64,000 bases of DNA from an uncultured Gammaproteobacteria bacterium (GCA_964394405.1 CAYMVY010000001.1:494633-558632); one strand, 5' to 3'. Positions 2,024 to 58,869 are shown, counted from the first letter of the stretch. Notes: generated by a model not told the origin, from the sequence alone. Numbers and translations: made by a program.

Positions 2024-2043
2024 AAAACTCAAAGTTCAAAACG
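2024..2043 (-). repeat. Third, solitary copy of the 20-bp end motif of the four-helix-bundle cassette (CGTTTTGAACTTTGAGTTTT).
   Basis: It is the exact 20-bp reverse complement of 11693-11712. It is also present with one mismatch at 6242-6260. Confidence 0.6.
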
Positions 2044-3613: not shown

Positions 3614-3989
3614 CCCGCCCTATCCTCCACTTCGTGGGTGGGTCAGTGCATGCAATGGTTCGTAATTACGATGAGCCTGTATGTTCTTGACCCACCCGCG
3701 ACTACACAACTCCCTGTTGACTAATAGAGGTTTATATGTTACTGTTTGCAGTTGCGTAAGGAAATTCGCATCTTGTACGTCTTATAGCGGCGTGTAGTAT
3801 GCGGCGCTTGACTTAGGTCGAGCCCAAGGTTCTTTTACATATAGTGTTTTGTGAAAATTTGTATAGTCAAGAAACGGTGGATGTGTTTGTGCTCTCAACA
3901 AAGGCACGAATGCACCCCCGTTTCTTGACTGCGGTAGGTTCCGCAGCACAAGGATGGGTTCACGGCACATTCCCAGGAGGGAAACCGCC

Positions 3990-6424: not shown

Positions 6425-7876
6425 TTACAAATCCTTCTCCGAATTTCTAATAAAATTAAACGTTTCTTTCTTCTCTCGATACAACACGCCAAACATAGCA
6501 CCCCACCACACCCACGTCATCCACATGACCGGTGTATGATGAAGCATGTTGTCGCCAAGACTCATGACACCAAAAGCAATAATCCAGCCCAGGAGATGTA
6601 TCGAGAGCGCGTGCGTTCCCATCCACACCTGGTCGAGATAAAATTTTCCTGCATTCCATACGAGTAACCACAGGAAGAGGAGATAGGTGAAAAGACCAAT
6701 CGTACCAAGCTCAATTGCAAATCGGAGATAATCATTGTGTGATTCAGTACTGTCGTCCCGGATATGTAGAGGGCTCTGTTCGTTTTCCCATACACGGGGG
6801 AAACTACCGTACCCGTATCCATACCACGGCCGCGCGAGAAATATAGGCACTGACTCAGAGATCAGATTTTGTCGCCATGAAATAGAGTCAGCTTCCTCAT
6901 CACGTGTAGTCAATCGTTGAATGAGCTGAATCCGCTCGAGATTGAAGTTGGTATATTTTTCGAGTACCTGATTGAGTGGGGAAAATATGAGGTAGAGTAT
7001 GAGCGTACCGAGTGCCAATATTCCCAAAAATTTTCTGAATTTTGCGAGACCAATCACTACGAGAAAAATGCCGAGTCCCACCCATGCACCACGAGTGAAG
7101 GTACAGGCAAGGAGAATCAAGAGAAAGAGGGTAATCAGATGTGCATATAATTTTTTGCGTGTGAGATAGAATGTTCGATCAATATATGCATGGTGAATAT
7201 GAATGAAGAGAAGAGAGACAATAAAAAAAGCAAATACATTGGGATGCGCAAAGGTGCCAAAAATGCGATCGCGGATATCAAAGGTGGTAATTCCTTTACC
7301 AAAAAATAATTGGAATATGCCAAATGCAATTGGGATAATACTCCCAACTACAATTGAAAGCGTGAGTTCGCGGAGACTGATATATTTTTTTCCAATAAAA
7401 ATGAATCCGAGAACAAAGAGGATGATAAGCACGAGGAATTTGACGCTCTCGAGTGCAGTCTCCATGGGAACAATGCTGACCATAGTACTCCCGAACATGA
7501 GTACGAGGAGGAGCATTGCAATTTTTAGTCCAGGAATTCGGTATGATCGTTGCAAGTGTGTCGCGAGCATGAATATTCCCCATAGCGCGATAATCATCGA
7601 GAATCCGGCATTGATATTCATCTGAACGCCTGCAACTCCTCCGAGTGACACATCTCGCCAAGTATCGAGAGTGGGGCGGAGTGCCAGGAAAACAAGTAAT
7701 AATTTTTCTCGCAAAAATATATGCCCAAAATACAATAGAGCGATCATGAGAAGTATGAGATCGATTTCGATAATCGGATTCACGAGTATGACCAGAAGAA
7801 AAATCACAGCGACAATCGAGTGGACTCGATTGCGTTGTGGTAGGGAAGACTGCATTGTTTTGAAATATTGGTACAT
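6425..7876 (-). CDS. O-antigen ligase / Wzy_C family polytopic membrane protein (WaaL-like).
   Basis: It has about 10 transmembrane segments and the characteristic periplasmic-loop motifs TRGAW ... GYGYGSF ... ESHNDYLRFAIELGTIGL (the HN-x-YL-x4-E-x-G signature). Confidence 0.8.
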   Translation of the reverse strand: MYQYFKTMQSSLPQRNRVHSIVAVIFLLVILVNPIIEIDLILLMIALLYFGHIFLREKLLLVFLALRPTLDTWRDVSLGGVAGVQMNINAGFSMIIALWGIFMLATHLQRSYRIPGLKIAMLLLVLMFGSTMVSIVPMETALESVKFLVLIILFVLGFIFIGKKYISLRELTLSIVVGSIIPIAFGIFQLFFGKGITTFDIRDRIFGTFAHPNVFAFFIVSLLFIHIHHAYIDRTFYLTRKKLYAHLITLFLLILLACTFTRGAWVGLGIFLVVIGLAKFRKFLGILALGTLILYLIFSPLNQVLEKYTNFNLERIQLIQRLTTRDEEADSISWRQNLISESVPIFLARPWYGYGYGSFPRVWENEQSPLHIRDDSTESHNDYLRFAIELGTIGLFTYLLFLWLLVWNAGKFYLDQVWMGTHALSIHLLGWIIAFGVMSLGDNMLHHTPVMWMTWVWWGAMFGVLYREKKETFNFIRNSEKDL

Positions 7877-35823: not shown

Positions 35824-37170
35824 ATGTCATTTGTCTCGAGGATTCGGTCACTCCCAACCAAGAGCTTATTACTGGGCATTCTCGTGGTCTCTTTTTTTAT
35901 TACACTTAGTTACGCATTTTATTTTCGGATTCATCCTGTTGTTGACGCTCAGGCATATGATCAGATTGCCATGAACTTGCTTCAGGGCTGTGGGTTCAAA
36001 GAAGACTGTTCGAATAATTTTCTGCATGATCCGGCAATCACTCGGGCGGGTCCTGCGTATGAATTTTTTCTTGCTGGAATATATTATATATTTGGGCATC
36101 AGTACGAGGTAGTGTGGATTATACAAGCACTTCTTCATGTACTTACTGCATACATGCTTTACCTAAGTGCAAAGCGCTTGTTTGTGGAAAAAGGAGAAAA
36201 AATAGGTTTGATTGCTGCTGCAATAATTGCGTTTCATCCAGACCTGATTGAAATAGCAGCAATGCTCATGACAGAAACATTTTATCTGTTTTTTGTTTCG
36301 CTATTCATATATTTATTTGCTCGAGTATATAGAGATCCTGCGAATTCATTTCTTTCTATTGTGCTTGGAGTGATAACAGGCCTGGCGATTCTCAGTCGTC
36401 CGCCGGTGATGTTATTTGTCCCAGTGGTGCTATATCTATACTTCACGAAGAAGCTACTTCGACAGGGTTTGGTATTTTGTGTCTTTTTACTACTCACTCT
36501 AACTCCGTGGACAATACGTAATTACCGAGTGTTTGATACGTTTATCCCGACCACGTTGATTGGTGAGTATAATTTATGGGTGGGGAACACGCTTGAGAGC
36601 GATGGGGGGCAGCTAAGCGAAGGATTTAATCCTGTAACCCATTATGGCGAATTTTATGGATTTGCAACATTAAAAGACGAGGCAAAACGTCAGTTTTTTG
36701 ATTTTGTCTTTACACATCCAGGACGTTTTATAGAGTTGTGTGTGATTCGTTTTATGACCTATTTCAGTCTGATCCGTCCGATGGGGTTCTGGTTTTATCA
36801 GACGGGCATTTCGCAAGCTACATTTGTGGCTGTATCAGGTATTTCAATTGCTGCCCTTTTTATTCTCGGCTTTGCGGGGCTGGTGCAACTTTTTCGAGAG
36901 AAAAAAGCACTCTATTATTATGTCATTGTCCTCACGCTTACTGCGCCCATTCTTCTCATTCCGACCGTGGTGCAGTCACGGTATCGTTTCCAGATTTATC
37001 CATTTCTCGCACTAAGTGCTGCGTACCTACTTGCACGTTATACAGGTGAGAGAAAGTCTGCACGCTCAGCCATTATCATGACCATGGTAGTACTTGGCAT
37101 AATTACACTGTGCGATGTCTTTATCTTTCGAGAAAGTATTATTGAACATATCAATATATTATTTCCTTAG
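35824..37170 (+). CDS. GT-C fold membrane glycosyltransferase, ArnT/PMT-like (GT39/GT83, PMT_2 type).
   Basis: It has about 11 transmembrane helices. The first extracytoplasmic loop motif is AQAYDQIAMNLLQGCGF. It is paired with the upstream DPM1-like GT2. Confidence 0.65.
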   Translation: MSFVSRIRSLPTKSLLLGILVVSFFITLSYAFYFRIHPVVDAQAYDQIAMNLLQGCGFKEDCSNNFLHDPAITRAGPAYEFFLAGIYYIFGHQYEVVWIIQALLHVLTAYMLYLSAKRLFVEKGEKIGLIAAAIIAFHPDLIEIAAMLMTETFYLFFVSLFIYLFARVYRDPANSFLSIVLGVITGLAILSRPPVMLFVPVVLYLYFTKKLLRQGLVFCVFLLLTLTPWTIRNYRVFDTFIPTTLIGEYNLWVGNTLESDGGQLSEGFNPVTHYGEFYGFATLKDEAKRQFFDFVFTHPGRFIELCVIRFMTYFSLIRPMGFWFYQTGISQATFVAVSGISIAALFILGFAGLVQLFREKKALYYYVIVLTLTAPILLIPTVVQSRYRFQIYPFLALSAAYLLARYTGERKSARSAIIMTMVVLGIITLCDVFIFRESIIEHINILFP

Positions 37171-39112: not shown

Positions 39113-39898
39113 ATGGTTATTATGTTCGAACAAAAGAAGATTTTTGCAGTGGTACCAGCGTATAATGCAGCAAAAACGCTTGAAAAAACACTTACCGCAA
39201 TCCCGTACGGGGTGGTAGATACCGTTTTTGTGGTTGATGATGGGAGTAGGGATGACACAGCTGAGATCGCACGTAGGTTCAAGGTAACCCTCCTTCGTCA
39301 CGAAAAGAATAAAGGCTATGGTGCAGCGCAAAAAACAGGCTATGAAGCTGCGCTTCGGGCAGGAGCTGATGTTATTGTCATGGTACATGCTGATTTTCAG
39401 TATGACCCGACACTACTTCCTAAGTTGGTGGAGCCAATTGTGCGAGGAGTCGCTGATGCGTGTTTTGGTTCACGAATGGCTGATAAACGCCAAGCGTGGC
39501 GTGGAGGTATGCACTGGTGGCGTTTTGTCGCGAATATTGCCCTGACCATGATCGAAGAGATGGTGTTGCGTCTGAGACTTACCGAATACCACACCGGGTA
39601 TCGGGCATATAGTAGGAAAGTGCTCGAAACGATTCCATTTGCAAAGAATTCAAACAACTATGTGTTTGATACAGAGATGATTGTAGAGTTAAGACTGGGG
39701 AATTTTAAAGTTTCTGAGATCGGAATTCCTACACGGTATTTTTCTGATGCATCGTCGCCCAATTTTTTAAAAAGTGTTGAATATGGGTTCTCAACCCTAC
39801 ACATGCTTCTGCGATATATCCTTTTTAAATTTCGCCTGAAGATCTATCCGCAATTTACGATGCAGAATCCAAAAACACAGTCAGAAGTGATTAAATAA
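39113..39898 (+). CDS. GT2 family glycosyltransferase (DPM1-like polyprenyl-phosphate sugar synthase type).
   Basis: Motifs present: IFAVVPAYNAAKTLEKTL ... VVDDGSRDDTAEIA ... KGYGAAQKTGY ... HADFQYDP. Confidence 0.75.
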   Translation: MVIMFEQKKIFAVVPAYNAAKTLEKTLTAIPYGVVDTVFVVDDGSRDDTAEIARRFKVTLLRHEKNKGYGAAQKTGYEAALRAGADVIVMVHADFQYDPTLLPKLVEPIVRGVADACFGSRMADKRQAWRGGMHWWRFVANIALTMIEEMVLRLRLTEYHTGYRAYSRKVLETIPFAKNSNNYVFDTEMIVELRLGNFKVSEIGIPTRYFSDASSPNFLKSVEYGFSTLHMLLRYILFKFRLKIYPQFTMQNPKTQSEVIK

Positions 39899-42706: not shown

Positions 42707-44413
42707 ATGCGTTTTTCTCTAAAAACATTGACTGCGAAAAAAAATATTCCGCTTTTGATAATACTCACGATTGCACTTTTGGTACGAGTTATCGGTATTG
42801 GTTTCGGACAACCATTATGGGTAGTGGGGGATGAACCCTCATTTATTTTTGGTGCTCTCAAAATGATTGAGCTGAAAACGCTGCTCCCCATTTTTCATGA
42901 CACTGTATTCAAGGGACTTCTGTACTATCCACCATTCCTATGCTATATCAACATACTTCCATTTCTTTTGTTGATCGGAATAAAGTTTCTTTTTTTTAAT
43001 GGAGCAATAGGGGATTTCAAGAATTATCTTCTTATTGATCTTACAGATTTTTTTATACTCGCACGCTGTATAAGCGCAGTAATTGGGTGCGCTACTGTGT
43101 GGCTGGTATATAAAATCGGAAAAAATATTTTTAAAAATGAAATCGTCGGACTCGCTTCGGCAAGTTTTCTCACACTTTCTTTTCTGCACGTTAACTTTTC
43201 TCATTGGGCGAGACATTGGACGTTTTCTACATTCTTTTTTGCTTTGATTATCTGTATTCTCTCCTCTGAACATATACAAGTCTCCAAGCGTTATCGATCC
43301 GCGATTCTTGTGTGCGCACTGGGTGTTGGAATTACACTTCCAATCATTATTTTGGGTCTATTTATCGCAATTTGGTTTTTGTACTATGAGAGAGTATCGA
43401 TAGTAGTACATATACGCAAAGCGTGGTTCTGGCAGGCACTGGTAGGTGCGGTACTCCTTATTGCCACTGCATATAGTGTGTGGCCCAGAGGGTTTTATGT
43501 TGCTCAGAATGCGACACATGATGCATTTTTTGCAGGTAAGACATTTATTGATTTTTTCAGAAGTTATTCCTTTTATGCAGTTGGTCTCATTCGCGGGGAA
43601 CTACTATTGTCTATATTCGGGCTTATTGGTTGTGTCTGTGGAATAAAAAAATTCAAAAGATATATCTTATCGAGTATTTTGTTTATCTTTGTGTACATCG
43701 CGATTTTTTATCTATTTTTCTTACAGACTGATCGCTTTATTCTTATCCTATATCCTCTATTTGTGACAATTGCGGGTTATGGATTCGTGACGACTGTGAA
43801 ATATAGTCTAAAGTACAGTCGCCCGATTACCTATTTTTTTGTCGGAGGACTCGTAGCTCTTCAGGCTTTTTTCATCATTAAATTTGAGTATCTTTTGGTG
43901 ATAGATGACACTCGAGTACAGGCGCGTGAATGGGTAGAGGAACATATTCCTGAAAAAAGTAAAATTGTGGTACTCGCCTCCTTGATGCGGTTACCGTCTA
44001 CAGCTGAGGCGATTAAAGAGCAAGAATATCTAGATAGTTCTTCACTTCGCTCTATTGATCGGGCTGAAGCAGTGCTTGATGACTCCTTCTTCAGTGGAAA
44101 AAGATACCATGCGCTCAATCTGAACTCAGTAAATTCGAGTACTTTGTATCAAGAGCTGGGTAACTACATTCTTACTCATGGATATCAATATATAGTGTAT
44201 ACCTCTGAATTTGCGACTGAAAAAGGAGTTCATGAATCACTCCTACACTTAGGGGTCCCGGTAAAAACATTTACAGGGTATAAGAAGCCTGGTTTCCAGG
44301 GAGAGTCAATAGTAAATGGCTTTGGGGGAGGCATTGTGGAGATACTGATGTCACGAAGTATTGGCCCTACGGTGACTATTTATAGGCTAGGCGTAGAAAA
44401 GTCCGAGGAGTAG
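42707..44413 (+). CDS. GT-C fold membrane glycosyltransferase (ArnT/PMT-like) with a C-terminal periplasmic domain.
   Basis: It is multi-pass. The first-loop motif is PLWVVGDEPSFIFGALKMIE (a DE motif). Confidence 0.55.
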   Translation: MRFSLKTLTAKKNIPLLIILTIALLVRVIGIGFGQPLWVVGDEPSFIFGALKMIELKTLLPIFHDTVFKGLLYYPPFLCYINILPFLLLIGIKFLFFNGAIGDFKNYLLIDLTDFFILARCISAVIGCATVWLVYKIGKNIFKNEIVGLASASFLTLSFLHVNFSHWARHWTFSTFFFALIICILSSEHIQVSKRYRSAILVCALGVGITLPIIILGLFIAIWFLYYERVSIVVHIRKAWFWQALVGAVLLIATAYSVWPRGFYVAQNATHDAFFAGKTFIDFFRSYSFYAVGLIRGELLLSIFGLIGCVCGIKKFKRYILSSILFIFVYIAIFYLFFLQTDRFILILYPLFVTIAGYGFVTTVKYSLKYSRPITYFFVGGLVALQAFFIIKFEYLLVIDDTRVQAREWVEEHIPEKSKIVVLASLMRLPSTAEAIKEQEYLDSSSLRSIDRAEAVLDDSFFSGKRYHALNLNSVNSSTLYQELGNYILTHGYQYIVYTSEFATEKGVHESLLHLGVPVKTFTGYKKPGFQGESIVNGFGGGIVEILMSRSIGPTVTIYRLGVEKSEE

Positions 44414-45554: not shown

Positions 45555-46697
45555 ATGTCTCTGAGACAGGGGAAATTGTGCTATGTCAGTAATATTCGTC
45601 TTCCTACAGAGAAAGCTCATGGCCTTCAGATCATGAAAATGTGCGAAGCATTTACGCATCAGGGGATTGAAACTGAACTCGTAGTTTCAAGAAGAAAGAA
45701 TCATCTCACCGATGATCCATTTCATTTTTATACCATAGCAACAAGGTTTCAGATTGCTCGGATAGGTAGTATTGATTTATTGTGGTTACCATTTTTTAAG
45801 AAATGCTGGTTTTTGGTGCAAAATATAACATTTTATTTTTCAGTTAAAAAATATTTTTCCAGAAAAAACTCTCAAATTTATTATACACGTGATGTGCTTA
45901 TTGCTGCGTGGGCAAGCAGACGTATTCCTAACATGTTTTATGAAATTCATTCGTTGCCGAAAAAAGTACGAAGAATCCACCGTAAAGCATGGACAGGTGC
46001 TCGCGGTATAATTGCAATCAGTCAAGGAATCAAAGATGCACTTATTTCTTACGGAATTCCAGAGAGTAAAATTTTAGTTGCGCATGATGCAGTAGACATT
46101 CAACAGTTTCAAATTTTAGAGTCAAAACAAGAGTGTCGTGCCAAGCTGCAATTACCTCAAGCGCAGAAAATAGTACTGTACACCGGACATCTCTATGAGT
46201 GGAAAGGTGCTAATTTGCTGGCCGAAGCAGCAGAGAAGCTTCCTGAAACGATTCACCTTTATTTTGTCGGGGGCACTAATGAAGATATAGAATTGTTTAA
46301 AAGAAAATATCCCTATCAAAATATACATATTGTAGGTTGGCAGTCACATGACGTGATACCGTATTGGCTCCGGGCAGCTGATTTTGTGGTGCTCCCTACA
46401 AGTGCTAAAGAAAAGATTGGAGACGTGTATACGTCGCCTTTGAAGTTGTTTGAATATATTGCTTCGGGTACACCGATTATTGCATCGCAAACTCAGTCAA
46501 TTCAGGAAATTCTAAAGCCGGGAGACGCAACTTTTTTCCAACCAGATGACGTCTCTGATTTAGTAGAAAAGATAAGATCAAGTATTGAAAATAATAATGG
46601 GGCACAAGAAGACGCTGCAAAAAAACTTGCGAAAAATTTTGATTTGAGCTGGGACAGTAGGGCAGAGAAGATTTTAGAATTTATTTCTAAAGTCTAG
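45555..46697 (+). CDS. GT4 family glycosyltransferase.
   Basis: The C-terminal motif is VLPTSAKEKIGDVYTSPLKLFEYIASGTPIIAS. The start is set at the ATG at 45555; the track ORF from 45432 overlaps rmlB and uses a non-ATG start. Confidence 0.7.
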   Translation: MSLRQGKLCYVSNIRLPTEKAHGLQIMKMCEAFTHQGIETELVVSRRKNHLTDDPFHFYTIATRFQIARIGSIDLLWLPFFKKCWFLVQNITFYFSVKKYFSRKNSQIYYTRDVLIAAWASRRIPNMFYEIHSLPKKVRRIHRKAWTGARGIIAISQGIKDALISYGIPESKILVAHDAVDIQQFQILESKQECRAKLQLPQAQKIVLYTGHLYEWKGANLLAEAAEKLPETIHLYFVGGTNEDIELFKRKYPYQNIHIVGWQSHDVIPYWLRAADFVVLPTSAKEKIGDVYTSPLKLFEYIASGTPIIASQTQSIQEILKPGDATFFQPDDVSDLVEKIRSSIENNNGAQEDAAKKLAKNFDLSWDSRAEKILEFISKV

Positions 46698-46702
46698 TAT
46701 AT

Positions 46703-48583
46703 ATGTGTGGTATTGCTGGATATTGTGGATCTGGGAATAGGGAAGTGTTGCAAAAGATGACTGATACTATTAGGTACCGTGGACCCGATGATTCAGGACT
46801 CTTTGTTGATCATATGGTCGGTCTGGGACACCGCCGGCTGAGTATTATTGATCTCTCGCCTCTGGGACATCAACCTATGTGGAATGACGCTCAAACGATC
46901 GCAATTGTTTTTAATGGGGAGATTTATAATTTCAAGTCTCTTCGTGAAAAATTGAGTAACTTGGGTTACAAGTTTAAAAGTACCAGTGATACTGAGGTTA
47001 TCATTTATTTATATCAAGAGTACGGAACTGAATGTTTTTCATATCTTAATGGAATGTTTGCGTTCGCTCTGTATGACACACGTAAGGAAAAAATTATTCT
47101 TGTGCGTGATCGTCTGGGCAAGAAACCATTGTACTGGACAAGTCAGAGGGGTACATTGATTTTTGGTTCAGAATTAACAGTATTAACACAACATCCTTCT
47201 TTTTCTAAGAAATTAAATGTTCACTCACTGAACAAATATCTCGCATTTGATTATATACCAACTCCGCATACGATATATGAAGGGGTCTATAAGCTTGAGC
47301 CAGGGACGTTTTTGGAATATGAAAAAGGTGGAATCAAGAAAACCCAATTTTGGGATATATCTTTTAGCGGAAACAGTGGCCCAGTGAATGAAAAAGATAT
47401 TCTTATTTCAATTGATTCGAAGCTCGAGAGCGCTGTTCAGTCAAGACTTATGGCTGATGTGCCGCTCGGTATTTTTTTGAGTGGAGGACTTGATAGTTCC
47501 TCAATCGCATATTATGCACAGAAGAATAGTGCTCAAAAAATAAAGACATTTAGTATTGGGTTTGAAGAAAAAAGCTACGATGAGAGCGAGTATGCACGAG
47601 AAGTTGCGCAATTTTTGGGAACTGAACATCATGAAAAAATACTTACAGCGCGCGATTCATTGAATTTCATTCCGCAGATTGGAAGTGTAATTGATGAACC
47701 AGTCGCTGATTATTCCTATATTCCAACCTATTTATTATCACAGTTTACGCGTGAACAGGTAACCGTTGCTTTGGGGGGCGATGGTGGTGATGAATTATTT
47801 TTCGGATACGGAACGCTCGCTGCAGAAAGAATGATGCATATTTTTAAAAAACATCCGCACGTATTAAAAAAACTCTTAGAGTTCGCAAGAAAATGCATAC
47901 CCACATCCTATTCGTCTTTTAATATGGGTTTCAAACTGGATCGATTGATCGCGGGAGTTGGTAGTCCTCCTGCCCATCAACATCACGCATGGATGGGAAC
48001 TTTCTCACCTGCGCTACGGAAAGATTTATTTGTACCAGAGGTGCGGAGTCTGCTTGTAGAAAAAAATGAATATGAAGATATTGATCGGTATATGAGACAT
48101 GTTTCTTCAGAACCCCGGTATAATCAACTTATCTACCTATATCTGCGGACATATCTTATGGATCAGGTGCTCGTTAAAGTTGATCGTATGAGTATGGCAA
48201 ATTCTCTTGAAGTGAGAGCGCCATTTCTTGATTATGAATTTGTTGACTTCATAAATCGTATTCCGTATAATTTCAAAATTAAAGGAATGCAGACGAAGTA
48301 TCTACTAAAGAGAGTAATGGAAAATAAACTTCCTTCACATATCGTGCATCGTAAGAAGCAAGGTTTTGGGGTCCCTCTATCGCAGTGGTTCACATCTGAA
48401 CTAAAAGATTTTGTGACAGATACACTATCACCTGAACAGATAAAACGATCTGGATTTTTTAATCCTGCAACCATACATACGATTCTCCAAGAACATATGA
48501 CAGGGAAACGTGATAACCGTAAGATGATATGGTCACTGATTGTCTGGCAATTATGGTATGATCATTCAACCCAAAACGTATGA
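46703..48583 (+). CDS. Second asparagine synthase (glutamine-hydrolysing) family amidotransferase.
   Basis: It has the N-terminal Cys (MCGIAGY), a PP-loop SGGLDSS and AsnB C-terminal motifs. Confidence 0.8.
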   Translation: MCGIAGYCGSGNREVLQKMTDTIRYRGPDDSGLFVDHMVGLGHRRLSIIDLSPLGHQPMWNDAQTIAIVFNGEIYNFKSLREKLSNLGYKFKSTSDTEVIIYLYQEYGTECFSYLNGMFAFALYDTRKEKIILVRDRLGKKPLYWTSQRGTLIFGSELTVLTQHPSFSKKLNVHSLNKYLAFDYIPTPHTIYEGVYKLEPGTFLEYEKGGIKKTQFWDISFSGNSGPVNEKDILISIDSKLESAVQSRLMADVPLGIFLSGGLDSSSIAYYAQKNSAQKIKTFSIGFEEKSYDESEYAREVAQFLGTEHHEKILTARDSLNFIPQIGSVIDEPVADYSYIPTYLLSQFTREQVTVALGGDGGDELFFGYGTLAAERMMHIFKKHPHVLKKLLEFARKCIPTSYSSFNMGFKLDRLIAGVGSPPAHQHHAWMGTFSPALRKDLFVPEVRSLLVEKNEYEDIDRYMRHVSSEPRYNQLIYLYLRTYLMDQVLVKVDRMSMANSLEVRAPFLDYEFVDFINRIPYNFKIKGMQTKYLLKRVMENKLPSHIVHRKKQGFGVPLSQWFTSELKDFVTDTLSPEQIKRSGFFNPATIHTILQEHMTGKRDNRKMIWSLIVWQLWYDHSTQNV

Positions 48584-50715
48584 AGCAATTATCAATTGTA
48601 ATTCCGGTATATAATGAAGAAGCTATTCTTGAAAAAGAAATCGCTGAACTTGTGATACAGATGGGGCAATTATTACCCGATATATCATATGAGATTATTC
48701 TGGTGGAAAATGGAAGTTTCGATCGTACGCGACAGATTACTCGAGAATTAGAACAAAATTACCCCGTAGTTCGAGGAGTGTATCTACCTAGTGCTGGGTA
48801 CGGACGTGCCTTGAAGCAAGGATTGATTGAAAGCACTGGTTTTTATACAGTTCTTTTTAATATTGATTTTTGGGATATTAGTTTCATACGTAAAGCACTT
48901 ACAATTTTCAAAGAAAAAAAAGTTGACATGGTGGTGGGCTCAAAGGTGATGAGTGGTGCAGAAGATAGTCGTCCATGGTTGAGGCGTCTGATCACTCGAT
49001 CGTTCAATCGAGTGTTGCGTCTGCTATTCGGGTTTCATGGTACTGATACACATGGTATGAAAGTATTGGTACGTGATCGTATGCTTCCTGTTGTTCATGA
49101 GTGCAAGACGCAGAGAGAAATTTTTGATACTGAATTTGTCTTGCGGGCACAGCTCATGGGATTGACGAGCGAGGAGGTGCCCGTGGTATGTATTGAAAAA
49201 AGAAACACCACCTACAATATTGCAAAGCGTGTACCTCGTACGATCAAAGACATGATTACTTTGTTTTTTACGCTACCTAATCAACGACAGAGACATCTGC
49301 GAGGCTTACTACTTCTTGCAAGTGTGGTGTTATTTTTTGGGATAGTTTTTTCTGGTTTTCCAGATAGGCCAGGTCCATGGTTTGATGAAGGAGTAAATCT
49401 GGGAATTGCAAAAACATTTACCGAAGATGGTGTGTTTAGTCTTCGTCTAGGACCTGGAGAATATGTACGAGAACGAGGGCTGATGATTAGTACTAATTAT
49501 CCGGTACTCATTCCAATCAGTCTAATGTTTCATATGTTTGGTGTGGGTCTTGCACAGGCAAAAATAGTCATGATTCTTTTTTTGATTGGATTTCTGGTCG
49601 TCGCGTATCAGCTCGTGCGTTCGCGCGCCTCCTCACTTGTTGCATCTCTCAGTATATTGTTGGTAGTAACGTTTCTCCCATTTTATGGTAATGGGTTGGG
49701 TGGGGGACTGGGAGAAGTACCTGGTTTATTTTTTTTATTGCTTGGGTTATTACTTTTTGAACATAAAAAACCTACATATCTATTTTTTGCTGGCTTAAGT
49801 TTTGGTCTCTGTGCATCGACCAAAGTCTTTTATCTGGTGGTTCTTGCTGCACTTGGGGTGAGTGAAATATGGGGAGCAATTCGCGAACGCCATTTGCCGT
49901 GGAAACGCTGGTTAATCCTCCTAGCGGGTATAGTACCACCACTCATATTATGGCTTCGGACACTAATTCCAGAGTTAAGTATCGAGGGAATTAGACAGAC
50001 TTTATCGTATTACAATAATCCATATAATATTACGATTGAGCCAGCCAATAATCTGATAAAATTTTTTACTGAATCAACCCCAATACATTTCACACTCTGT
50101 TTGATTGCATTTATTTTTTATCTGTATTCCAGACATCGATCTTCTCGGTTAAATCGAGCTGACATCATTATTGCGACCTTTATTATATTGAATATTGCTT
50201 GGTTTTTGAGAACGCCAGGGTGGTATCGATATTTTTTTCCGGCGCATCTATTGGTGCTGGTACTCTTAGCTAGTAGTGTGTGGGATGTATTAAAAAATCT
50301 CACGAGTCAAAGGAAGGCTCTGTATGGGGTAACTCTACTTAGTATCATTCTTGCATCCGTACAAGCAGGACATTTACTCGGTGAATATAATAGCCGACTA
50401 TACTACAACCCAGAACCGCGCAGATTTGCAATTGATCTAATACAGGAAAAGAAAGTTGATGCTGATATTTTTGTGATCGATCAGCCTGAATTTTGGTTTT
50501 TACTTGATGATCAGGGTGTGGGACAATATATGCAGATGAATCCGTATATCGCATTTGGTAGATCTGTTTTTGAAAATACATCATCCTTACCAAAATTTTT
50601 AGTAAGTGGCGATCCTGCAAGAAATCAGTATCTATCCGCACATCTGAATGAACTGGAGGAGTATTATGTACTCAAAGAAACACGAGATCAGTATTATGTA
50701 TTTGAGAAAAAGTAG
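48580..50715 (+). CDS. Fusion protein. The N-terminal part is a GT2 DPM1-like polyprenyl-phosphate sugar synthase domain. The C-terminal part is a polytopic GT-C-like membrane domain.
   Basis: The N-terminus reads [18 protein letters not shown] ... ENGSFDRT ... GYGRALKQG. The C-terminal ~480 aa have about 11 transmembrane helices and a first-loop WFDEGVNLGIAKTF motif (DE, GT-C-like). Confidence 0.6.
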   Translation: MKQLSIVIPVYNEEAILEKEIAELVIQMGQLLPDISYEIILVENGSFDRTRQITRELEQNYPVVRGVYLPSAGYGRALKQGLIESTGFYTVLFNIDFWDISFIRKALTIFKEKKVDMVVGSKVMSGAEDSRPWLRRLITRSFNRVLRLLFGFHGTDTHGMKVLVRDRMLPVVHECKTQREIFDTEFVLRAQLMGLTSEEVPVVCIEKRNTTYNIAKRVPRTIKDMITLFFTLPNQRQRHLRGLLLLASVVLFFGIVFSGFPDRPGPWFDEGVNLGIAKTFTEDGVFSLRLGPGEYVRERGLMISTNYPVLIPISLMFHMFGVGLAQAKIVMILFLIGFLVVAYQLVRSRASSLVASLSILLVVTFLPFYGNGLGGGLGEVPGLFFLLLGLLLFEHKKPTYLFFAGLSFGLCASTKVFYLVVLAALGVSEIWGAIRERHLPWKRWLILLAGIVPPLILWLRTLIPELSIEGIRQTLSYYNNPYNITIEPANNLIKFFTESTPIHFTLCLIAFIFYLYSRHRSSRLNRADIIIATFIILNIAWFLRTPGWYRYFFPAHLLVLVLLASSVWDVLKNLTSQRKALYGVTLLSIILASVQAGHLLGEYNSRLYYNPEPRRFAIDLIQEKKVDADIFVIDQPEFWFLLDDQGVGQYMQMNPYIAFGRSVFENTSSLPKFLVSGDPARNQYLSAHLNELEEYYVLKETRDQYYVFEKK

Positions 50716-50717
50716 AT

Positions 50718-52442
50718 ATGAATGTTACCATCATTATTTCAAAAATTCGTTTCCATCTCTCAGGACTATTAATTAGTCTCCTTATTGGTGCTATTATCAC
50801 TCTCCCTGCAATTTTTTTCCGTTTTTCCACCAGTTATCAAGGTATCGACATGATGAAGACCAATACCGAGACACACTACATTGCACAGATTAAGGAAGTA
50901 ATGGATGGACACTACGGTCTCGGCAATCCTTTTTATGCTGATTTAAAAGATTCTCCGTATCTATTCCCTCCGCTTTCTCCATTATTGATTGGTCTTGTAG
51001 GTAAATTATTTTCACTTGATATCTATACTATTGTTTCAGTTGCTCGTTTTGTCTCCACAGGGATGACTGCATTTTTTATATATCTGTTTGTCGCATTACT
51101 TACGAGCCGAAGATTGGTGGGAATTATTGCAGCGCCAGCAGTCATGCTCGGATATGGGTTACTTGATCCACACAGCATTATTAATTTATTTGTACACGGA
51201 GTTCCTACTCCTACTTCTGCTTTTATTGATTACGGTCGACCGATTAATCCGCAGATGAGTTCGCTCTTTTTCTTTGCATACCTTTTCTTTTTACAAAATT
51301 TTCTTACAAAAAACAAATTGGTCCATGGAATTATTGCAAGTGTACTGCTCGGACTTTCTTTTTATGTGTACTTGTTTACTTGGACGTTTATTATAATCCT
51401 AAATGGAACACTGGGGTTAGTATATATCTTTAGAAAAGAGTGGCCGATGTTAAGAGGATTGGTATATATTTCATTAGGTGGTTTGCTGGTGGGAATACCG
51501 TATTTTTTGAATGTGTATCAAGCATCGCTCAGCCCGTGGTACGAGGAATCAGCTGCGCGGTTTGGTTTTGTGAATGTTCGTTTTCTTACCATCAGCAGAA
51601 TTGTAATTGGCACGAGCATCCTCTTTGGGCTGGTGTATAAATGGTGCACCAAAGAAATACGCATATTTTTTATAGCTTTTTTTCTTGCAGCGTTTGTTGC
51701 CGTCAATGAACAATTAGTTACGGGAAAGTATTTATTTAATCACCATTATCACTGGTATTACATCACCCCACTGATTATTGTCTGTATCTTGGTAGTATTA
51801 TTTGTAATAATGAAGAAATTAAATGTGCAGAGAAAGTTTCAGCTTGGAATTGGGATCTTACTCAGTGTAGTAACCGTGTCAAACGGCATATTAGCGCAAG
51901 CATATTCCTTTTACGCGGCATTACCTGAGACTACTGAACTGCAGAAATATGCACCAGTAGTCTCGTGGCTGAACACAGAAACTGAGAAAGACAGCAGCGT
52001 GCTTGCGCCAGGAGTACTTTCAGACCTACTCCCTGCAATTACACACAATAATGTGTATTATCCAAACACCGGCCTCTATACTTTGATTTCAAATGAACGA
52101 CTCTTAAATATATATCTGGTTTACACGTACCTTGATCAGATACCAAAAGAGAGGATACGTGAGCATCTAGAGAGTAAAAGAGATGAAATCAGTGGATTTG
52201 CGTTTGGGTATACCTACAGCTTTATACCGGGGGTATGTTATGGCTGTTTTCCTGATTCGATCATTGATAGCTTAGTCAAGGTATATGAGGGACTGGACGA
52301 AGAAAATTTTATTTTCTTTGCAACACAGTATCCAGTGGACTACATCATATGGGATACCCAAAAAAATCCAGAGTGGAATATCGATCGGTTCAATTTTTCT
52401 TTGGTAAAACAGTTTGGCAGTATTAAAATGTATAAACTGTAG
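50718..52442 (+). CDS. Polytopic membrane protein of unknown function; a possible GT-C-fold transferase.
   Basis: It has about 12 transmembrane helices. An early loop has VMDGHYGLGNPFYADLKD. It sits between GT-C/GT2 genes. Confidence 0.4.
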   Translation: MNVTIIISKIRFHLSGLLISLLIGAIITLPAIFFRFSTSYQGIDMMKTNTETHYIAQIKEVMDGHYGLGNPFYADLKDSPYLFPPLSPLLIGLVGKLFSLDIYTIVSVARFVSTGMTAFFIYLFVALLTSRRLVGIIAAPAVMLGYGLLDPHSIINLFVHGVPTPTSAFIDYGRPINPQMSSLFFFAYLFFLQNFLTKNKLVHGIIASVLLGLSFYVYLFTWTFIIILNGTLGLVYIFRKEWPMLRGLVYISLGGLLVGIPYFLNVYQASLSPWYEESAARFGFVNVRFLTISRIVIGTSILFGLVYKWCTKEIRIFFIAFFLAAFVAVNEQLVTGKYLFNHHYHWYYITPLIIVCILVVLFVIMKKLNVQRKFQLGIGILLSVVTVSNGILAQAYSFYAALPETTELQKYAPVVSWLNTETEKDSSVLAPGVLSDLLPAITHNNVYYPNTGLYTLISNERLLNIYLVYTYLDQIPKERIREHLESKRDEISGFAFGYTYSFIPGVCYGCFPDSIIDSLVKVYEGLDEENFIFFATQYPVDYIIWDTQKNPEWNIDRFNFSLVKQFGSIKMYKL

Positions 52443-52455
52443 TGCACTCTCTTTT

Positions 52456-53835
52456 ATGCGTATACGTGCTATTCTGAAGATTCGAAGGTGGTTTCACGAG
52501 CGTCCCACACCTGTGATTTTATTCTGTGTTTCATTTATTATTAATTGCACAATTGGACTTTTGCTGTACCTGACTCACGGGTCAGATTTTGTGACACTTG
52601 GTGATGATGATTCCTCTGGGTACATTAGTCTAGCTCGGAGTATTGCTTCGGGAAACGGTTTTATGTTGGATGGGGTAGTGAGTGCACTTCGTCCGCCCCT
52701 GTATCCCTTGTTCCTTTCATTTTTTATTTTTTTTGGTCTTCCTCTAGAATATGCTATTTTTGTTCAATATATAGCTGCCTCAATATCAGTGGTCCTTATC
52801 TATAGTATCGGTGCGCGGATGTATTCTTCAAAAGCTGGTATTATTGCCGCTGGGCTGTTTATGGTAGAGCCGTACATGCTGTTGCTCAATAGTACTGCGA
52901 TGACTGAAACGATTTTTGTCTCACTATCGCTGGCAGGAGTTTACTCAATACTCAGATTACTTGAAGGAGAAAAATACCAGCGGTGGTCAATTTCTATAGG
53001 TATTTTTTTTGGGCTTGCAACACTCACTCGACCGAATGTATTCTATATCCCAGTGATTGTACTCTTGCTTGCAATCATCGGTGGTGTGTATTCAGAAAAA
53101 TTTAAGAAAGTGAATATCAAAGCTTTTGTGCTTTTTTTATTTATATTCTCTCTAGTACTTGCGCCATGGGGTGTGCGGCAGTACACCCGATTCGGGTCTG
53201 TGCGCCCGAGTAGCGTCGATACGTATCTTTTGTATTGGCGAGTTCTCCCAATAGCTCTTGCGCACGAGAATAATGTTACCTACAGACAGGCAATTGATAT
53301 GCTTCAAATAGAAACGCCACAAAAGATTCCCAATTTTGATCCTCTCAAGATGCAACATACTTTTGAGTATGATCATATTCTCAAAAAAGAAGTCATGTCT
53401 CATGTGCGAGGACAGGTGCTTATCATTGTAAATTTTTACCTCTCTTCAGTGCCAGTGACACTTCTTAGAACAGGATACACACGAATTCTTGAAGAATTTG
53501 GTATACCAGAGCACAGAAAAGAAAACATAACATCGCTTCTTGCAGAGCAGAGATATGGTCAGGCAGTTGATGTTCTGTTGAAACCATCTGTATACCAACT
53601 CGTACACCTACTAGGAGCTTTCTTATGGATCTGTATATATGGTGTTATTATTGCCAAGGCAAAGGCTCTCGTCAGGAGAGATAAGCGCATGAATACGATA
53701 GTTCTATGCCTATGTATACTCTATTTGACAGTATTCGCTATCGGTCCGCAAGTATATGTGCGCTATCAGTTGGTTATTTACCCCTATTGGTTGTTACTTT
53801 TTGCTGGTGCTCTCAGTTTACAGAAGAAAAAGTAG
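52456..53835 (+). CDS. GT-C fold membrane glycosyltransferase, ArnT/PMT_2-like (GT39/GT83).
   Basis: The first-loop motif is GDDDSSGYISLARSIASGNGFML ... RPPLYPLFLSF. The track ORF starts at a TTG at 52414; the ATG at 52456 is preferred. Confidence 0.65.
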   Translation: MRIRAILKIRRWFHERPTPVILFCVSFIINCTIGLLLYLTHGSDFVTLGDDDSSGYISLARSIASGNGFMLDGVVSALRPPLYPLFLSFFIFFGLPLEYAIFVQYIAASISVVLIYSIGARMYSSKAGIIAAGLFMVEPYMLLLNSTAMTETIFVSLSLAGVYSILRLLEGEKYQRWSISIGIFFGLATLTRPNVFYIPVIVLLLAIIGGVYSEKFKKVNIKAFVLFLFIFSLVLAPWGVRQYTRFGSVRPSSVDTYLLYWRVLPIALAHENNVTYRQAIDMLQIETPQKIPNFDPLKMQHTFEYDHILKKEVMSHVRGQVLIIVNFYLSSVPVTLLRTGYTRILEEFGIPEHRKENITSLLAEQRYGQAVDVLLKPSVYQLVHLLGAFLWICIYGVIIAKAKALVRRDKRMNTIVLCLCILYLTVFAIGPQVYVRYQLVIYPYWLLLFAGALSLQKKK

Positions 53836-55884: not shown

Positions 55885-57376
55885 ACGTATCCATGAGTAG
55901 TGCACAAAAAGACCGGAGACCTGGGTCTTTTTTTAATTTTTCAATATCATTTTCATACCAGAGATTCGAGAAATCGAAAGGCACTGATTCCTTGAGAACT
56001 GCGGCAGTAAAATGAATCATTGCCTCTTCATCGTATGAGAAATGAGTGAGTTGCTTTTGGATAATACTGGGTAAATCTTCCATAGCCCGAACTCGCGTGA
56101 CAAATGGGAGTGTATTGTAAAAAACATCACCGAAAGTAATCACTGGTTTTCCATAGATGCCGGCCTCCCATCCGCCGGTTCCAGTAATTGCGGTTATTAA
56201 TTTTGCTCGCTTAATAAATTCAAAACTACTGACACGATGATTGACTAGGCGAACATTTGGAATTTTCAGTAGTTCCTTGTAGTACCAATTTTGTCGCTTG
56301 CTTATCATCGCAGGGTGCTCTTTGACATAGAGTTTGTAGTGCAAAGGTAGAGACTCTGCGATATATCGAATAAGGGTGAGCTGATCGAAGTAGTAAGGAG
56401 AAAGGAGAAGGATTGCTAGCTCAGGCTCATAGTGAAGTGGAAAAAATACAAAATCTTCATTCCAAGTTAATGGTTTGTAGAAACGATCGAGACCCCTGAT
56501 AGATCGCACATACTGTTTGATTTTATACCAGATAAATCGTAGAGGGTTGAGATTGGTCATGCCATACTCGAATAAATGTCGACTTTTGACATAATTATTG
56601 AGCAGTGTCCAGATATATCGGATTGATTGTAGAACGTGCTTGGGATTCAAGATTCGAATCGGCTTTGGTAGCTGACCTAATGCTACATTCATATATTGCA
56701 ATTGCAAAGATCCGGTTTTTCTGAAGTGTTCGATTAATTTTTTTGCCTCGACATGATAAGAAGTCTCTATTTTTTCTTTTTTGAATATTTCAAATGTGCG
56801 AGATACTTCAGTTAGAGTTTTATAATCTTTGGAAATACACATGCGATTTGACACACGTGGGAAGTCGATATTAAAAACAGGAATTCCCATTTTTTTCGCA
56901 ACATTGTACAAAATTAGGTGCCCAAGAGCGCCAATAGCAAAAAATAAGATAAAATCGGGACGATGCTCAGAAAGCATTTTTTCAATCGCTCGTGCGCGCA
57001 CCTGAAATATTCGGAGAAGTTCTTCGTGTGAATAGAGAGGGTCGATTACTGCAGTGGTTTCTTCTTTTGGGCCGATAGACATCATGAGTTTTCTGTCGGT
57101 ATAGAGGTAGTGCCATAGTTCAGAAGGTCCATAGTTTTTTTCAAAATGTGTGATGTACTCAATATCAACTGTCTCATGTTGAAATTGGTTATGAAGTTCA
57201 TGATCGACAAGTACTGGGTTGTACACAATATCTGTTTGTGTATGTATAAATTTTTCGGCACCAAGCGAAAAGACATATGCAGAAAACTCCGTGACTCCAT
57301 AATCTTCTTTCAAGACATTCGCAATCGCATGTCCGATTTTACTGTACTGGTTTTGTAATACAATACAAGCTCTCAT
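55871..57376 (-). CDS. GT-B-like polysaccharide biosynthesis enzyme, either KpsC/KpsS capsule-synthesis type (PF05159) or TagF-like glycerophosphotransferase.
   Basis: The C-terminal motif FIKRAKLITAITGTGGWEAGIYGKPVITFGDVFY resembles the KpsC/KpsS / TagF nucleotide-binding region. Confidence 0.45.
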   Translation of the reverse strand: MRACIVLQNQYSKIGHAIANVLKEDYGVTEFSAYVFSLGAEKFIHTQTDIVYNPVLVDHELHNQFQHETVDIEYITHFEKNYGPSELWHYLYTDRKLMMSIGPKEETTAVIDPLYSHEELLRIFQVRARAIEKMLSEHRPDFILFFAIGALGHLILYNVAKKMGIPVFNIDFPRVSNRMCISKDYKTLTEVSRTFEIFKKEKIETSYHVEAKKLIEHFRKTGSLQLQYMNVALGQLPKPIRILNPKHVLQSIRYIWTLLNNYVKSRHLFEYGMTNLNPLRFIWYKIKQYVRSIRGLDRFYKPLTWNEDFVFFPLHYEPELAILLLSPYYFDQLTLIRYIAESLPLHYKLYVKEHPAMISKRQNWYYKELLKIPNVRLVNHRVSSFEFIKRAKLITAITGTGGWEAGIYGKPVITFGDVFYNTLPFVTRVRAMEDLPSIIQKQLTHFSYDEEAMIHFTAAVLKESVPFDFSNLWYENDIEKLKKDPGLRSFCALLMDTFKKS

Positions 57377-58869
57377 AGTCGGGGGAGTGTTTTTAAAATG
57401 ACATCAATAGTCATATAGGGTCCTCGGTGGAATTTTTTTCCTACGATGTATATACCAAGACCGTATAGTAGGAAATAAAGTATTGTGAGGACGATTAGTA
57501 TGTAGAGGGGTAGCTGCATGAGAGTGTCTTTAAAAATCGCAAGGGGGGTCATGAGTCCTCCTGCAAGCAGGAGGGGGAAACCAATGCGGATAAAAATATT
57601 CCAATAAGTGATGCGAGTCAATGACTGTATATAGTGAAGGGTAAAGAAGAAGGTGGGCAAGAAGCCGAGTAACAGTGCGAGTGGAGCTCCATTAATTCCG
57701 TATCGAGGGGTGATATAGAGCAATAATATGAGGGAAATAATTATCTTTACGATATCAAGTTTTACTTTTTTGTCAGGGTATCCGATTCCACTTAATAATT
57801 TTGCACAAATATCAGTCATGTAACTCAATGTGAAATAAAGGAGTAGTATACGCAAGGCAAAAGTAATCGGAAGCCAAGGTTCTCCAAGCAGGACCAAGAC
57901 CAGTTTTCCTCCAGCAATTTGTATAAATAGGATAATAGGTAGGGTGACGACAAATAGGAGGTCTAAGCTTTTTTTAAATCCATCGGCAATTTTTTCTGGA
58001 GAATCTTTGATGCGTGCAAATGCGGGGAATGCAATCATTGAAATTATTGAGGAGATAAAACCGGGACCAATTGATGCAAGATTTTTCGCCTTACTATATA
58101 AACCAACCGCCGAGGTATTGGTTGAACGTGCAATAATTGAACTTTCGGCAAATGAATATATTTGGTCTCCCAACACCTGCCCAGTTACCCATTTACCGTA
58201 TCCGATAAGTTCTTTTAAAATTTTAAATTGAAAAGTAATGCGTGGTCGATAGGGGTGGAGCACGTAGCTGGCAATCATTTCGGTGAGATAGAGTGCTAGA
58301 TTACCGATAATGAGAGCGAGGTATGAACGCAGGAAATATGCTGAAATAACAGTCACAATTGAATAGGCGATTGCCCGAGCTGTATTGCGGATAAATATTT
58401 TTTTGAAATCAAGATCTTTGGTAAACCAAATTTCTCCGATATTGGTGAATTGTCGGATAAGAATGAAAACTCCACCAAGACGGATAACCCATGTGTATTC
58501 TTCTACATGGTAGAATGTTGCAATGAATGGTCCGGCAATAAAGACCAGAAGACAGATTACAATGCCGCGTAACACATTAACGGTCCAGATTGCATTAAGA
58601 TATTTTTCGACGCTTCCACCTTTTTGTATTGCCGCGGTTGCAAGCCCGTGTTCACTGGTAGTTTGGAGGAACCGTGGCACGAGCAAAACAATACTTGCAA
58701 TACCAAATTGTTCTGGAGTGAGAATTCGGGCAAGAATAAAAAAGGGCAGGATTGCGACTGCTTTTTGGATGATATAGTCTATCATGAGCCATTTGCCTGC
58801 TCGGATAGACTTCTGAAGCACGCCCTCAGGCGCTGAATTTTGTGTAGAATTAGAGGTATTCATTACCAT
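57373..58869 (-). CDS. wzx: Wzx-type oligosaccharide/polysaccharide flippase (MOP superfamily).
   Basis: It is about 498 aa with 12-14 transmembrane helices. The N-terminal region (IQKAVAILPFFILARILTPEQFGIASI) is typical of Polysacc_synt flippases. Confidence 0.7.
   Translation of the reverse strand: MVMNTSNSTQNSAPEGVLQKSIRAGKWLMIDYIIQKAVAILPFFILARILTPEQFGIASIVLLVPRFLQTTSEHGLATAAIQKGGSVEKYLNAIWTVNVLRGIVICLLVFIAGPFIATFYHVEEYTWVIRLGGVFILIRQFTNIGEIWFTKDLDFKKIFIRNTARAIAYSIVTVISAYFLRSYLALIIGNLALYLTEMIASYVLHPYRPRITFQFKILKELIGYGKWVTGQVLGDQIYSFAESSIIARSTNTSAVGLYSKAKNLASIGPGFISSIISMIAFPAFARIKDSPEKIADGFKKSLDLLFVVTLPIILFIQIAGGKLVLVLLGEPWLPITFALRILLLYFTLSYMTDICAKLLSGIGYPDKKVKLDIVKIIISLILLLYITPRYGINGAPLALLLGFLPTFFFTLHYIQSLTRITYWNIFIRIGFPLLLAGGLMTPLAIFKDTLMQLPLYILIVLTILYFLLYGLGIYIVGKKFHRGPYMTIDVILKTLPRL

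Follow-up and report, generated by a model that had tools for sequence, protein, structure and literature searches.

A natural, recurrent fusion of a GT2 glycosyltransferase domain resembling polyprenyl-phosphate sugar synthases with a GT-C-type membrane domain

Among the solved enzyme pairs in which a sugar is charged onto a polyprenyl phosphate and used on the other side of the membrane, the nearest to the gene considered here is formed by ArnC and ArnT, which act together with the flippase ArnE/F in attaching aminoarabinose to lipid A; other three-component periplasmic glycosylation systems are GtrB/GtrA/GtrC, CsbB/GtcA/YfhO and PpgS/Rv3779. A similar logic is found in eukaryotes, where a dolichyl-phosphate mannose (Dol-P-Man) synthase without transmembrane (TM) helices needs a membrane partner in the DPM complex (DPM1/DPM3), and the GT-C mannosyltransferases of the PMT, ALG and PIG types use its product across the membrane. 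Here we compare these systems with a gene from a stretch of 64,000 nucleotides (nt) of an uncultured Gammaproteobacteria bacterium (GCA_964394405.1 CAYMVY010000001.1:494633-558632), which is called the window throughout and from whose first letter all positions are counted. The gene codes for a single polypeptide of 711 amino acids (aa) in two domains, a GT2 domain resembling polyprenyl-phosphate (Pren-P) sugar synthases and a polytopic membrane domain of the GT-C type, an architecture that had been proposed in the initial annotation and that is confirmed here (Table 1).

As in the ArnC/ArnT pair, a GT2 domain resembling the Pren-P type, predicted to be cytoplasmic, is thus combined with a GT-C domain predicted to act at the outer face, and the structures that match the two halves best include ArnC, GtrB and ArnT. 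The locus also contains genes for the modification of sugar nucleotides, among them those of ArnB-like, DegT-type aminotransferases. However, the fusion is one polypeptide, the DADLQ box of the Pren-P enzymes is replaced by NIDFW, and no small flippase gene was found nearby. Moreover, ArnC and GtrB have two TM helices and form tetramers (PMC12690121), whereas the GT2 half of the fusion has neither TM helices of its own nor a C-terminal hairpin. Ppm1 (Rv2051c) of Mycobacterium tuberculosis, in which the domains D1 and D2 are fused while the corresponding Ppm2 and Ppm1 of M. smegmatis are split but interacting proteins (PMC3485146), is similar in that a synthase without TM helices is combined with a polytopic partner, and in that fused and split forms alternate between related species. 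The membrane partner in Ppm1 is, however, an N-terminal anchor domain with six TM helices and not a GT-C enzyme consuming the product (PMC3485146), whereas in the fusion described here it is C-terminal, has a GT-C fold and carries conserved active-site-like residues. In AglD from Haloferax volcanii, a Dol-P-hexose synthase domain is followed by a C-terminal UPF0104/MprF-like domain predicted to be a flippase (PMC5898192), so that, as proposed for the fusion, an N-terminal cytoplasmic GT2 domain charging polyprenyl phosphate is linked to a C-terminal polytopic domain that acts later in the same pathway; but while AglD joins a synthase to an MprF-like predicted flippase, the present protein would join a synthase to a GT-C transferase. 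One homologue of the fusion (P0018) bears the automatic JGI name 'glycosyltransferase AglD'.

With respect to its function, we consider it likely, albeit not beyond reasonable doubt, that the protein is a bifunctional enzyme of a three-component pathway for extracytoplasmic glycosylation, similar to ArnC/ArnT or GtrB/GtrC, in a bacterium of the Patescibacteria (the candidate phyla radiation, CPR). At the cytoplasmic face, the N-terminal GT2 domain would move a monosaccharide from a nucleotide sugar to polyprenyl phosphate, a flippase would carry the resulting polyprenyl-P-sugar to the outer leaflet, and at the outer face the GT-C domain, with its loop P-W-F-D269-E-G, would glycosylate an extracytoplasmic acceptor such as a surface glycopolymer or a protein. 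As the GT2 half itself lacks a TM helix, joining it to the GT-C domain would anchor the synthase via the first TM helix (TM1) of the latter; the fusion would also set a 1:1 stoichiometry of synthase and consumer, and hold the maker, the user and the released polyprenyl phosphate in one membrane patch. The architecture, the folds, the conservation, a domain order that fits the topology, split orthologs in shared synteny and the recurrence of the fusion are established here; the two activities, the sugar, the lipid and final acceptors and any gain from the fusion are inferred, the steps of the pathway from homology. The fusion may, as the initial annotation had suggested, couple the synthesis and transfer of one specific sugar. 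The components as well as the logic of such a pathway are already known, and the fusion does not represent a novel type of system; a full-text literature search returned no description of a GT2-GT-C fusion, but as most subscription journals were outside its coverage this is weak evidence of absence.

The N-terminal half has the GT-A fold of the CAZy/Pfam family GT2, with a Pfam match (PF00535) at aa 5-161 (E 2.4e-18), and the NCBIfam models for PgfS, ArnC (aa 2-257) and PpgS-type enzymes match the fusion protein in part. By sequence and by fold, its nearest relatives are the polyprenyl-phosphate sugar synthases PfDPMS (a dolichyl-phosphate mannose synthase, DPMS), ArnC and GtrB. A profile of 26 N-domain sequences matches DPMS, ArnC and GtrB at ~1e-16, ArnC being the only solved protein that is aligned across nearly the whole profile (positions 5-228); a separate sequence alignment pairs ArnC with aa 2-296. 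Foldseek in turn returned DPMS at 1.2e-10 and GtrB and ArnC at ~3e-9 for the GT2 half of an AlphaFold2 (AF2) model that was built on an alignment of 54 sequences and has a predicted local distance difference test (pLDDT) score of 91.7 and a predicted template modelling (pTM) score of 0.83; it was the only model used, the single-sequence model being unusable (pLDDT 43). In this model, helices at aa 133-150 and 214-231 precede TM1 (aa 233-257 in the model), the latter of the two helices lying directly at the membrane, and the anchoring of the GT2 half comes from the GT-C domain and not from a TM hairpin of its own.

Residues P9, N12, E13, N44-G45-S46, D48, N94, D96, F97, W98, G120-S121-K122, D129, R131, R135, R136, G154-T-D156-T-H-G159, K161, D183 and E185 of the GT2 domain are invariant in all 26 fused sequences. 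Invariant residues align to the ArnC segments 'GT-VR...wfRk' and 'gDygCMLR', D156 being part of G-T-D-T-H-G-M-K. In ArnC, R128 and R137 have been implicated in the binding of undecaprenyl phosphate (Und-P) (PMC12690121), and the invariant residues K122, R131, R135 and R136 are found in the stretch aligned to the segment containing these two arginines. In the printed alignment, in which the pairing within this loop is by sequence only, R137 pairs with R135 while R128 pairs with M124 and not with K122; on our reading of the alignment, however, K122 might correspond to R128.

The C-terminal half is a polytopic domain with the conserved GT-C core. In the AF2 model, about 11 membrane helices precede an alpha/beta domain at the C-terminus, and its GT-C half matches ArnT in Foldseek at 7e-10 over 572 alignment columns, with further strong structural matches of the C-domain to Pmt4, ALG12, ALG9 and ALG3; the case that the initial annotation had named as a refutation, a domain without similarity to the GT-C fold, does not apply. 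In addition, 23 of 27 members of the C-domain family match the GT-C family PMT_2 (PF13231) of Pfam at E ≤ 0.001 (best 7.9e-11). Like the number of helices, the motif that had been reported for the first loop, WFDEGVNLGIAK, is borne out by its position in the sequence (aa 267-278, nt 49378-49413, 6-10 residues past TM1) and by the model, so that the loop after TM1 contains acidic residues (P-W-F-D-E-G) as in other GT-C enzymes. Of these, D269 is invariant in the 26 fused and the 27 C-domain sequences and E270 is kept in at least 90%; within the motif, the 27 C-domain sequences all share W, F, D and G. The invariant residues of the GT-C domain in the 26 fused sequences, namely P264, W267, D269, G271, E379, K415, N480-P-Y482 and R550-Y551, are invariant in the standalone GT-C members, too.

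The order of GT2 domain, amphipathic helix, TM1 and acidic loop agrees with GT-C enzymes being oriented N-in, and would place the synthase inside and the D269 loop outside; if the number of TM helices is odd, the C-terminal alpha/beta domain would probably be extracytoplasmic, as in ArnT and PglB. That the GT-C half may use a polyprenyl-(pyro)phosphate-linked donor on the extracytoplasmic face is suggested by the repeated fusion to, or adjacency with, GT2 genes resembling those for Pren-P glycosyltransferases.

Several observations nevertheless speak against a bifunctional enzyme of this kind. The characteristic box of the Pren-P glycosyltransferases is DADLQ(H/D/N), in which the metal is bound by the second Asp together with the Gln, and a role as catalytic base has been proposed for the first Asp in ArnC, GtrB and DPMS (PMC12690121). 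In the fusion, this box reads N94-I-D96-F-W98, N94, D96 and W98 being the same in all 26 fused sequences. Against ArnC, N94 stands opposite D100, D96 opposite D102 and W98 opposite Q104, so that only the second Asp is kept, whereas the proposed catalytic base is an invariant Asn and the Gln ligand of the metal an invariant Trp. Likewise, the nucleotide motif is E43-N44-G-S, invariant in the subfamily, where the model enzymes have D-D-G-S. The statement that the first domain carries 'all the DPM1/GtrB-type motifs' was therefore too strong, and given these two variants the chemistry or the substrate of the GT2 half may differ in detail from those of DPMS, ArnC and GtrB. Furthermore, GT2 domains of the NID type are found joined to methyltransferases and an amine oxidase as well, a pattern that is not confined to the chemistry of lipid carriers. 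As to the C-terminal half, the match of the window protein itself to PMT_2 at aa 313-454 (E 0.004; 17.8 bits for the full length, 22.4 bits for the C-domain alone) falls below the gathering cut-off of 26.1 bits, and the profile of the C-domain had no match among PDB sequences at E ≤ 10, so that the assignment to GT-C rests on matches at the level of fold and family; also, D269 is likened to the catalytic residues of ArnT and PMT by its position in the loop only. Finally, no GtrA-, ArnE/F- or other small flippase candidate was found in the 64-kb window or in 45 related loci.

Regarding the other fusions of the GT2 domain, proteins in which the ENGS/NID type is joined to S-adenosylmethionine (SAM)-dependent methyltransferase domains (~450-470 aa) are found among P0098, P0144, P0171 and P0200, and in P0200 (706 aa) this GT2 domain sits after an N-terminal FAD amine-oxidase domain. 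The window itself holds a small GT2 gene without TM helices at 39113-39898 (261 aa) that has H-A-D in place of D-A-D, so that the fused subfamily is not alone in lacking the first Asp, and another small GT2 gene at 55138 that carries a canonical D-A-D-F-S-H.

The substitutions N94 and W98, together with the methyltransferase and amine oxidase fusions, would be accommodated by an alternative explanation that we regard as unlikely, although it deserves serious consideration: the GT2 domain might be an ordinary cytoplasmic glycosyltransferase acting on a lipid-linked oligosaccharide or another acceptor and the GT-C domain a polymerase- or ligase-like enzyme using a different donor, so that two consecutive but chemically unrelated steps would be joined. 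In line with this, several GT2 enzymes other than those of the Pren-P type (chondroitin synthase, 3bcv) score about equally at profile level over the first ~100 residues, and the genes around the fusion form a glycan-assembly cluster of very large size, in which Wzx-like and Wzy_C-like genes are present. It is at variance with this explanation that both the best fold matches and the full-length sequence matches of the GT2 half are DPMS, ArnC and GtrB, and that no variation is seen in the basic residues of the segment aligning with the Und-P-binding arginines of ArnC. Members of the same GT-C family are, moreover, joined to GT2 domains whose DAD boxes are canonical (see below), which supports the same role for the NID-type domain, and the pairing of a ~240-aa GT2 protein without TM helices with a GT-C protein occurs three times in the window (39113/42707, the fusion itself, and 55138/52414).

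It is considerably less probable that the C-terminal domain, derived from GT-C, serves as an anchor or scaffold and not as a transferase, comparable to D1 of Ppm1, which would leave the protein as a lipid-sugar synthase tethered to the membrane and no more, and that the consumers of the lipid-linked sugar are the 574-aa protein (50718) or the PMT_2 protein (52414) encoded downstream. Such an anchor has a precedent in Ppm1 D1/D2 (PMC3485146) and would meet the need of a GT2 half lacking a TM helix; the sub-threshold PMT_2 match and the presence of a GT-C-like protein always directly downstream of the fusion would fit as well. However, residues of the active-site type are kept in fused as well as standalone members (D269, E379, K415, R550 and Y551 being invariant and E270 kept in 90% or more), conservation extends to the soluble C-terminal domain, and the standalone proteins of ~480 aa, which form the majority, would have no reason to keep such residues as mere anchors.

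A similarly small chance is given to a 'make-flip-transfer' protein, in which the polyprenyl-P-sugar would be translocated by the membrane domain itself, either on its own or jointly with the 574-aa protein, and passed on to the active site of that domain at the outer face. Here the three-component systems, in which a dedicated small flippase (of the GtrA/GtcA family, or SMR-like as ArnE/F) is encoded with the pair, provide the point of comparison, as no such gene was found together with the present pair: hydropathy analysis revealed no small polytopic open reading frame (ORF; at least 80 aa and at least three hydrophobic segments) in the window outside its GC-rich first 6 kb, where the positive ORFs are antisense and probably spurious, and a phmmer search with the GtrA domain of P0057, which is of low sensitivity, found nothing in the window or in the 45 loci. 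The only flippase-type gene in the window codes for a Wzx-like MOP protein (57373-58869, minus strand).

Lastly, although the split genes in a related metagenome-assembled genome (MAG) lie so close that a single-base error could in principle fuse them, an artefact, i.e. a frameshift or missing stop joining two adjacent genes, is rejected as next to impossible, since the frame is continuous and the linker homologous in 25 other full-length sequences from independent assemblies, ~11 fused cluster-50 representatives are among the top 150 profile matches, an ortholog with 76% identity on a 141-kb contig shares architecture and synteny, a split ortholog resides in a locus of shared synteny, and AF2 confidence stays good through the junction (pLDDT 76-92 around aa 220-260).

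The 25 fused homologues, which were found in a search covering 5.8 billion proteins and come from NCBI, JGI, ENA and Logan assemblies, are 700-735 aa long and 33-84% identical to the window protein, each in one uninterrupted frame; in addition, an identical protein (P0001, 100%) is encoded on a 596,879-bp NCBI contig. Both the orthologous fusions and the split gene pairs that the initial annotation had called for do exist, and its concern about a sequencing error is answered by a frame that is kept in many independent assemblies. In the MAG GCA_023246715.1 (Magasanikiibacteriota), the halves are encoded by two neighbouring genes with 3 nt between them, whose products of 241 aa and 480 aa are 64% (GT2) and 43% (GT-C) identical to the halves of the window protein. 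The split GT2 gene ends exactly past the amphipathic helix and the split GT-C gene starts at TM1; accordingly, the junction of the fusion (aa ~232-239) matches the stop, the 3-nt spacer and the start of the split locus in the alignment. The order of genes around the split pair is that of the window, namely GT4, AsnB, GT2, GT-C and a membrane protein of about 580-590 aa, and this five-gene core is common to the window and the loci L001, L004/L006, L005, L007 and L008. The join is a natural and recurrent gene fusion of a known two-enzyme pathway.

In a profile search of 1.84 billion cluster representatives, 884 relatives were found at E ≤ 1e-30, and the best 150 matches comprise ~11 fused proteins (as cluster-50 representatives), ~100 standalone GT-C proteins (~480 aa) and ~30 standalone GT2 proteins (~240 aa). 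Standalone GT-C forms are thus ~10 times more common than fused ones, and the fused state is a genuine but minority state of ~10% of the family. The fusion had been called unusual in the initial annotation, which holds for its frequency but not in the sense of a singular event, as it has arisen several times in Patescibacteria. At least three GT2 subtypes occur as fusion partners of the GT-C family that has P-x-W-[FY]-D-E-G behind TM1, including a DDNSPDGT/DADGSHDP type (P0114, P0121, P0131 and P0167) and a VNDGSSDGT/DADLSY type (P0067), both with canonical DAD boxes like those of Pren-P glycosyltransferases, and fusion of the same GT-C domain to distinct GT2 subtypes implies that it occurred repeatedly. 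A count of eight fusion/fission changes obtained by neighbour joining (NJ) and the Fitch method was set aside, as the threshold for the N-domain was too strict and missed the other GT2 subtypes.

Furthermore, a paralogous GT-C domain, of the type encoded at 42707-44413 in the window, is fused to GT2 at L009:295-2685 (797 aa) and L028:2181-4502 (774 aa), the GT-C half of the latter giving a weak BLAST match only and no Pfam PMT_2 match, and P0061 is another GT2+PMT protein. Precomputed Pfam annotations of several homologues already show the combination of GT2 and PMT_2. Other architectures observed are a fusion of PMT_2 with a DegT aminotransferase (L007:9855-12518, 888 aa) and GT4-PMT_2-GT4 proteins of ~1170 aa (L032:507-4040 and L040:466-3948); these, like the fusions at L009 and L028, were read as stop-free segments. 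In these small genomes, GT-C membrane enzymes are thus recurrently fused to enzymes that act in the cytoplasmic part of a pathway.

Table 1. Features of the fusion gene, its conserved neighbours and the surrounding locus, with positions in the window unless another locus is named
Feature	Position	Strand	Remarks
Whole fusion gene	48580..50715	+	711 aa plus stop, ATG start; from ORF list
GT-A/GT2 catalytic domain, polyprenyl-phosphate glycosyltransferase-like, predicted cytoplasmic	48580..49215	+	aa 1-~212
Amphipathic juxtamembrane helix NIAKRVPRTIKDMITLFF	49219..49272	+	aa 214-231; model secondary structure; last element of GT2 half
Fusion junction LPNQRQRH	49273..49296	+	aa ~232-239; short, basic, poorly conserved
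GT-C polytopic membrane domain	49276..50394	+	aa ~233-605, ~11 TM helices; TM1 aa ~233-260
First external-loop motif P266-W-F-D269-E270-G-V-N-L-G-I-A-K278	49375..49413	+	Candidate GT-C catalytic/metal-binding carboxylate D269
C-terminal soluble alpha/beta domain	50413..50712	+	aa ~612-711; model secondary structure E630-710
Split pair, GT2 and GT-C genes	L004:9272-9994 (GT2) and L004:10001-11440 (GT-C)		Alignment to fusion halves
GT4 (GT-B) glycosyltransferase, conserved upstream	45555..46697	+	Pfam PF00534/PF13439; synteny in L001, L004, L007, L008
AsnB-like glutamine amidotransferase (asparagine-synthase family)	46703..48583	+	Pfam PF00733, E 2.9e-103; synteny
574-aa polytopic membrane protein	50718..52442	+	~10 TM helices; no Pfam match
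Five GT-C-like genes	35824-37170, 42707-44413, 48580-50715, 50718-52442, 52414-53835		
Wzy_C/O-antigen-ligase-like genes	6425-7876 and 23527-25605	minus (6425-7876)	

With respect to the neighbouring genes, the AsnB-like gene is found directly upstream in every fused and split locus examined, and in the window its stop and the ATG of the fusion gene share the sequence ATGA at 48580-48583, an overlap typical of operon-internal genes. The listed ORF of the GT4 gene starts at 45432 (to 46697) and would overlap the preceding dehydratase gene by ~100 nt; a start at M42 (45555) is preferred because it fits the 383-aa ortholog in L001 and avoids this overlap. The 574-aa protein has no match in Pfam or NCBIfam, and its profile none among PDB sequences at E ≤ 10; its gene follows directly on the fusion or the split pair in L001, L004/L006, L005, L007 and L008. 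Alignment of its profile with that of the C-domain family by hhalign (94% probability, E 1e-7, 148 columns) points to a distant GT-C-like paralog, which may be a second consumer of the same lipid-linked sugar.

A scan of 185,579 species genomes yielded 41 related loci, most of them in MAGs titled as members of the Patescibacteria group and the remainder in records with titles that we regard as doubtful, mainly 'uncultured Gammaproteobacteria' TPA assemblies. The window itself is accordingly assigned to the Patescibacteria, its nearest relatives being MAGs of the Magasanikiibacteriota type. In the related Patescibacteria loci, the GT-C gene usually lies beside a gene for a ~240-aa GT2 protein, which is located upstream, downstream or divergently. 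Many TPA_asm MAGs titled 'uncultured Gammaproteobacteria bacterium' (L005, L007, L010, L017, L025, L026 and others) carry loci that are otherwise found in Patescibacteria only, and the Gammaproteobacteria titles of these records look like placeholder or wrong taxonomy.

From ~6400 to 64000, the window consists mostly of glycan-assembly genes in the part that was examined; the locus surrounding the fusion measures ~55 kb. Its sugar genes code for a dTDP-sugar 4,6-dehydratase, a 3,5-epimerase, two DegT aminotransferases, and a UDP-GlcNAc 2-epimerase and a UDP-sugar dehydrogenase; along with these two aminotransferases and the dTDP-sugar enzymes, three GT2 genes without TM helices and WecB/WecC-like genes were noted in the region. 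The other end of the window differs in composition, with a G + C content of 0.51-0.65 at 14-6008 as against ~0.40 in the remaining window. It comprises three ORFs on the + strand (14-1768, 2438-3613 and 3954-6008) for Asp-, Cys- and Thr-rich, secreted-looking proteins with 'DxNxCTxDxC' cysteine repeats and thrombospondin-type-3-like 'DxDxDGxxDxxDNC' repeats, one of these ORFs having a near-identical internal duplication of ~50 aa. The window gave no match in an Rfam scan.

Assigning a synthase to its GT-C partner is difficult in most genomes, and a fusion together with its split orthologs offers a 'Rosetta-stone' assignment, which in this case reaches a large and unstudied GT-C family of the Patescibacteria, with the 884 relatives given above. 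The fusion also suggests how synthases without TM helices may be anchored in organisms with minimal genomes. As a single-chain construct with a confidently predicted arrangement of its domains, the protein might provide a handle on the hand-over of the sugar from the synthase to the GT-C enzyme, and could be used to probe whether such complexes aid the flipping of the lipid and the recycling of the carrier. The invariant N-I-D-F-W in place of D-A-D-L-Q represents a natural test of the proposal that the first Asp acts as the catalytic base, and should the protein indeed make, flip and transfer its lipid-linked sugar, it would be a tractable bacterial model for the passage of polyprenyl-monophosphate sugars such as Dol-P-Man across the membrane. 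Finally, the abundance of GT-C, GT2 and amino-sugar genes in this locus suggests that CPR bacteria, about whose envelopes very little is known, glycosylate their surface in an elaborate manner.

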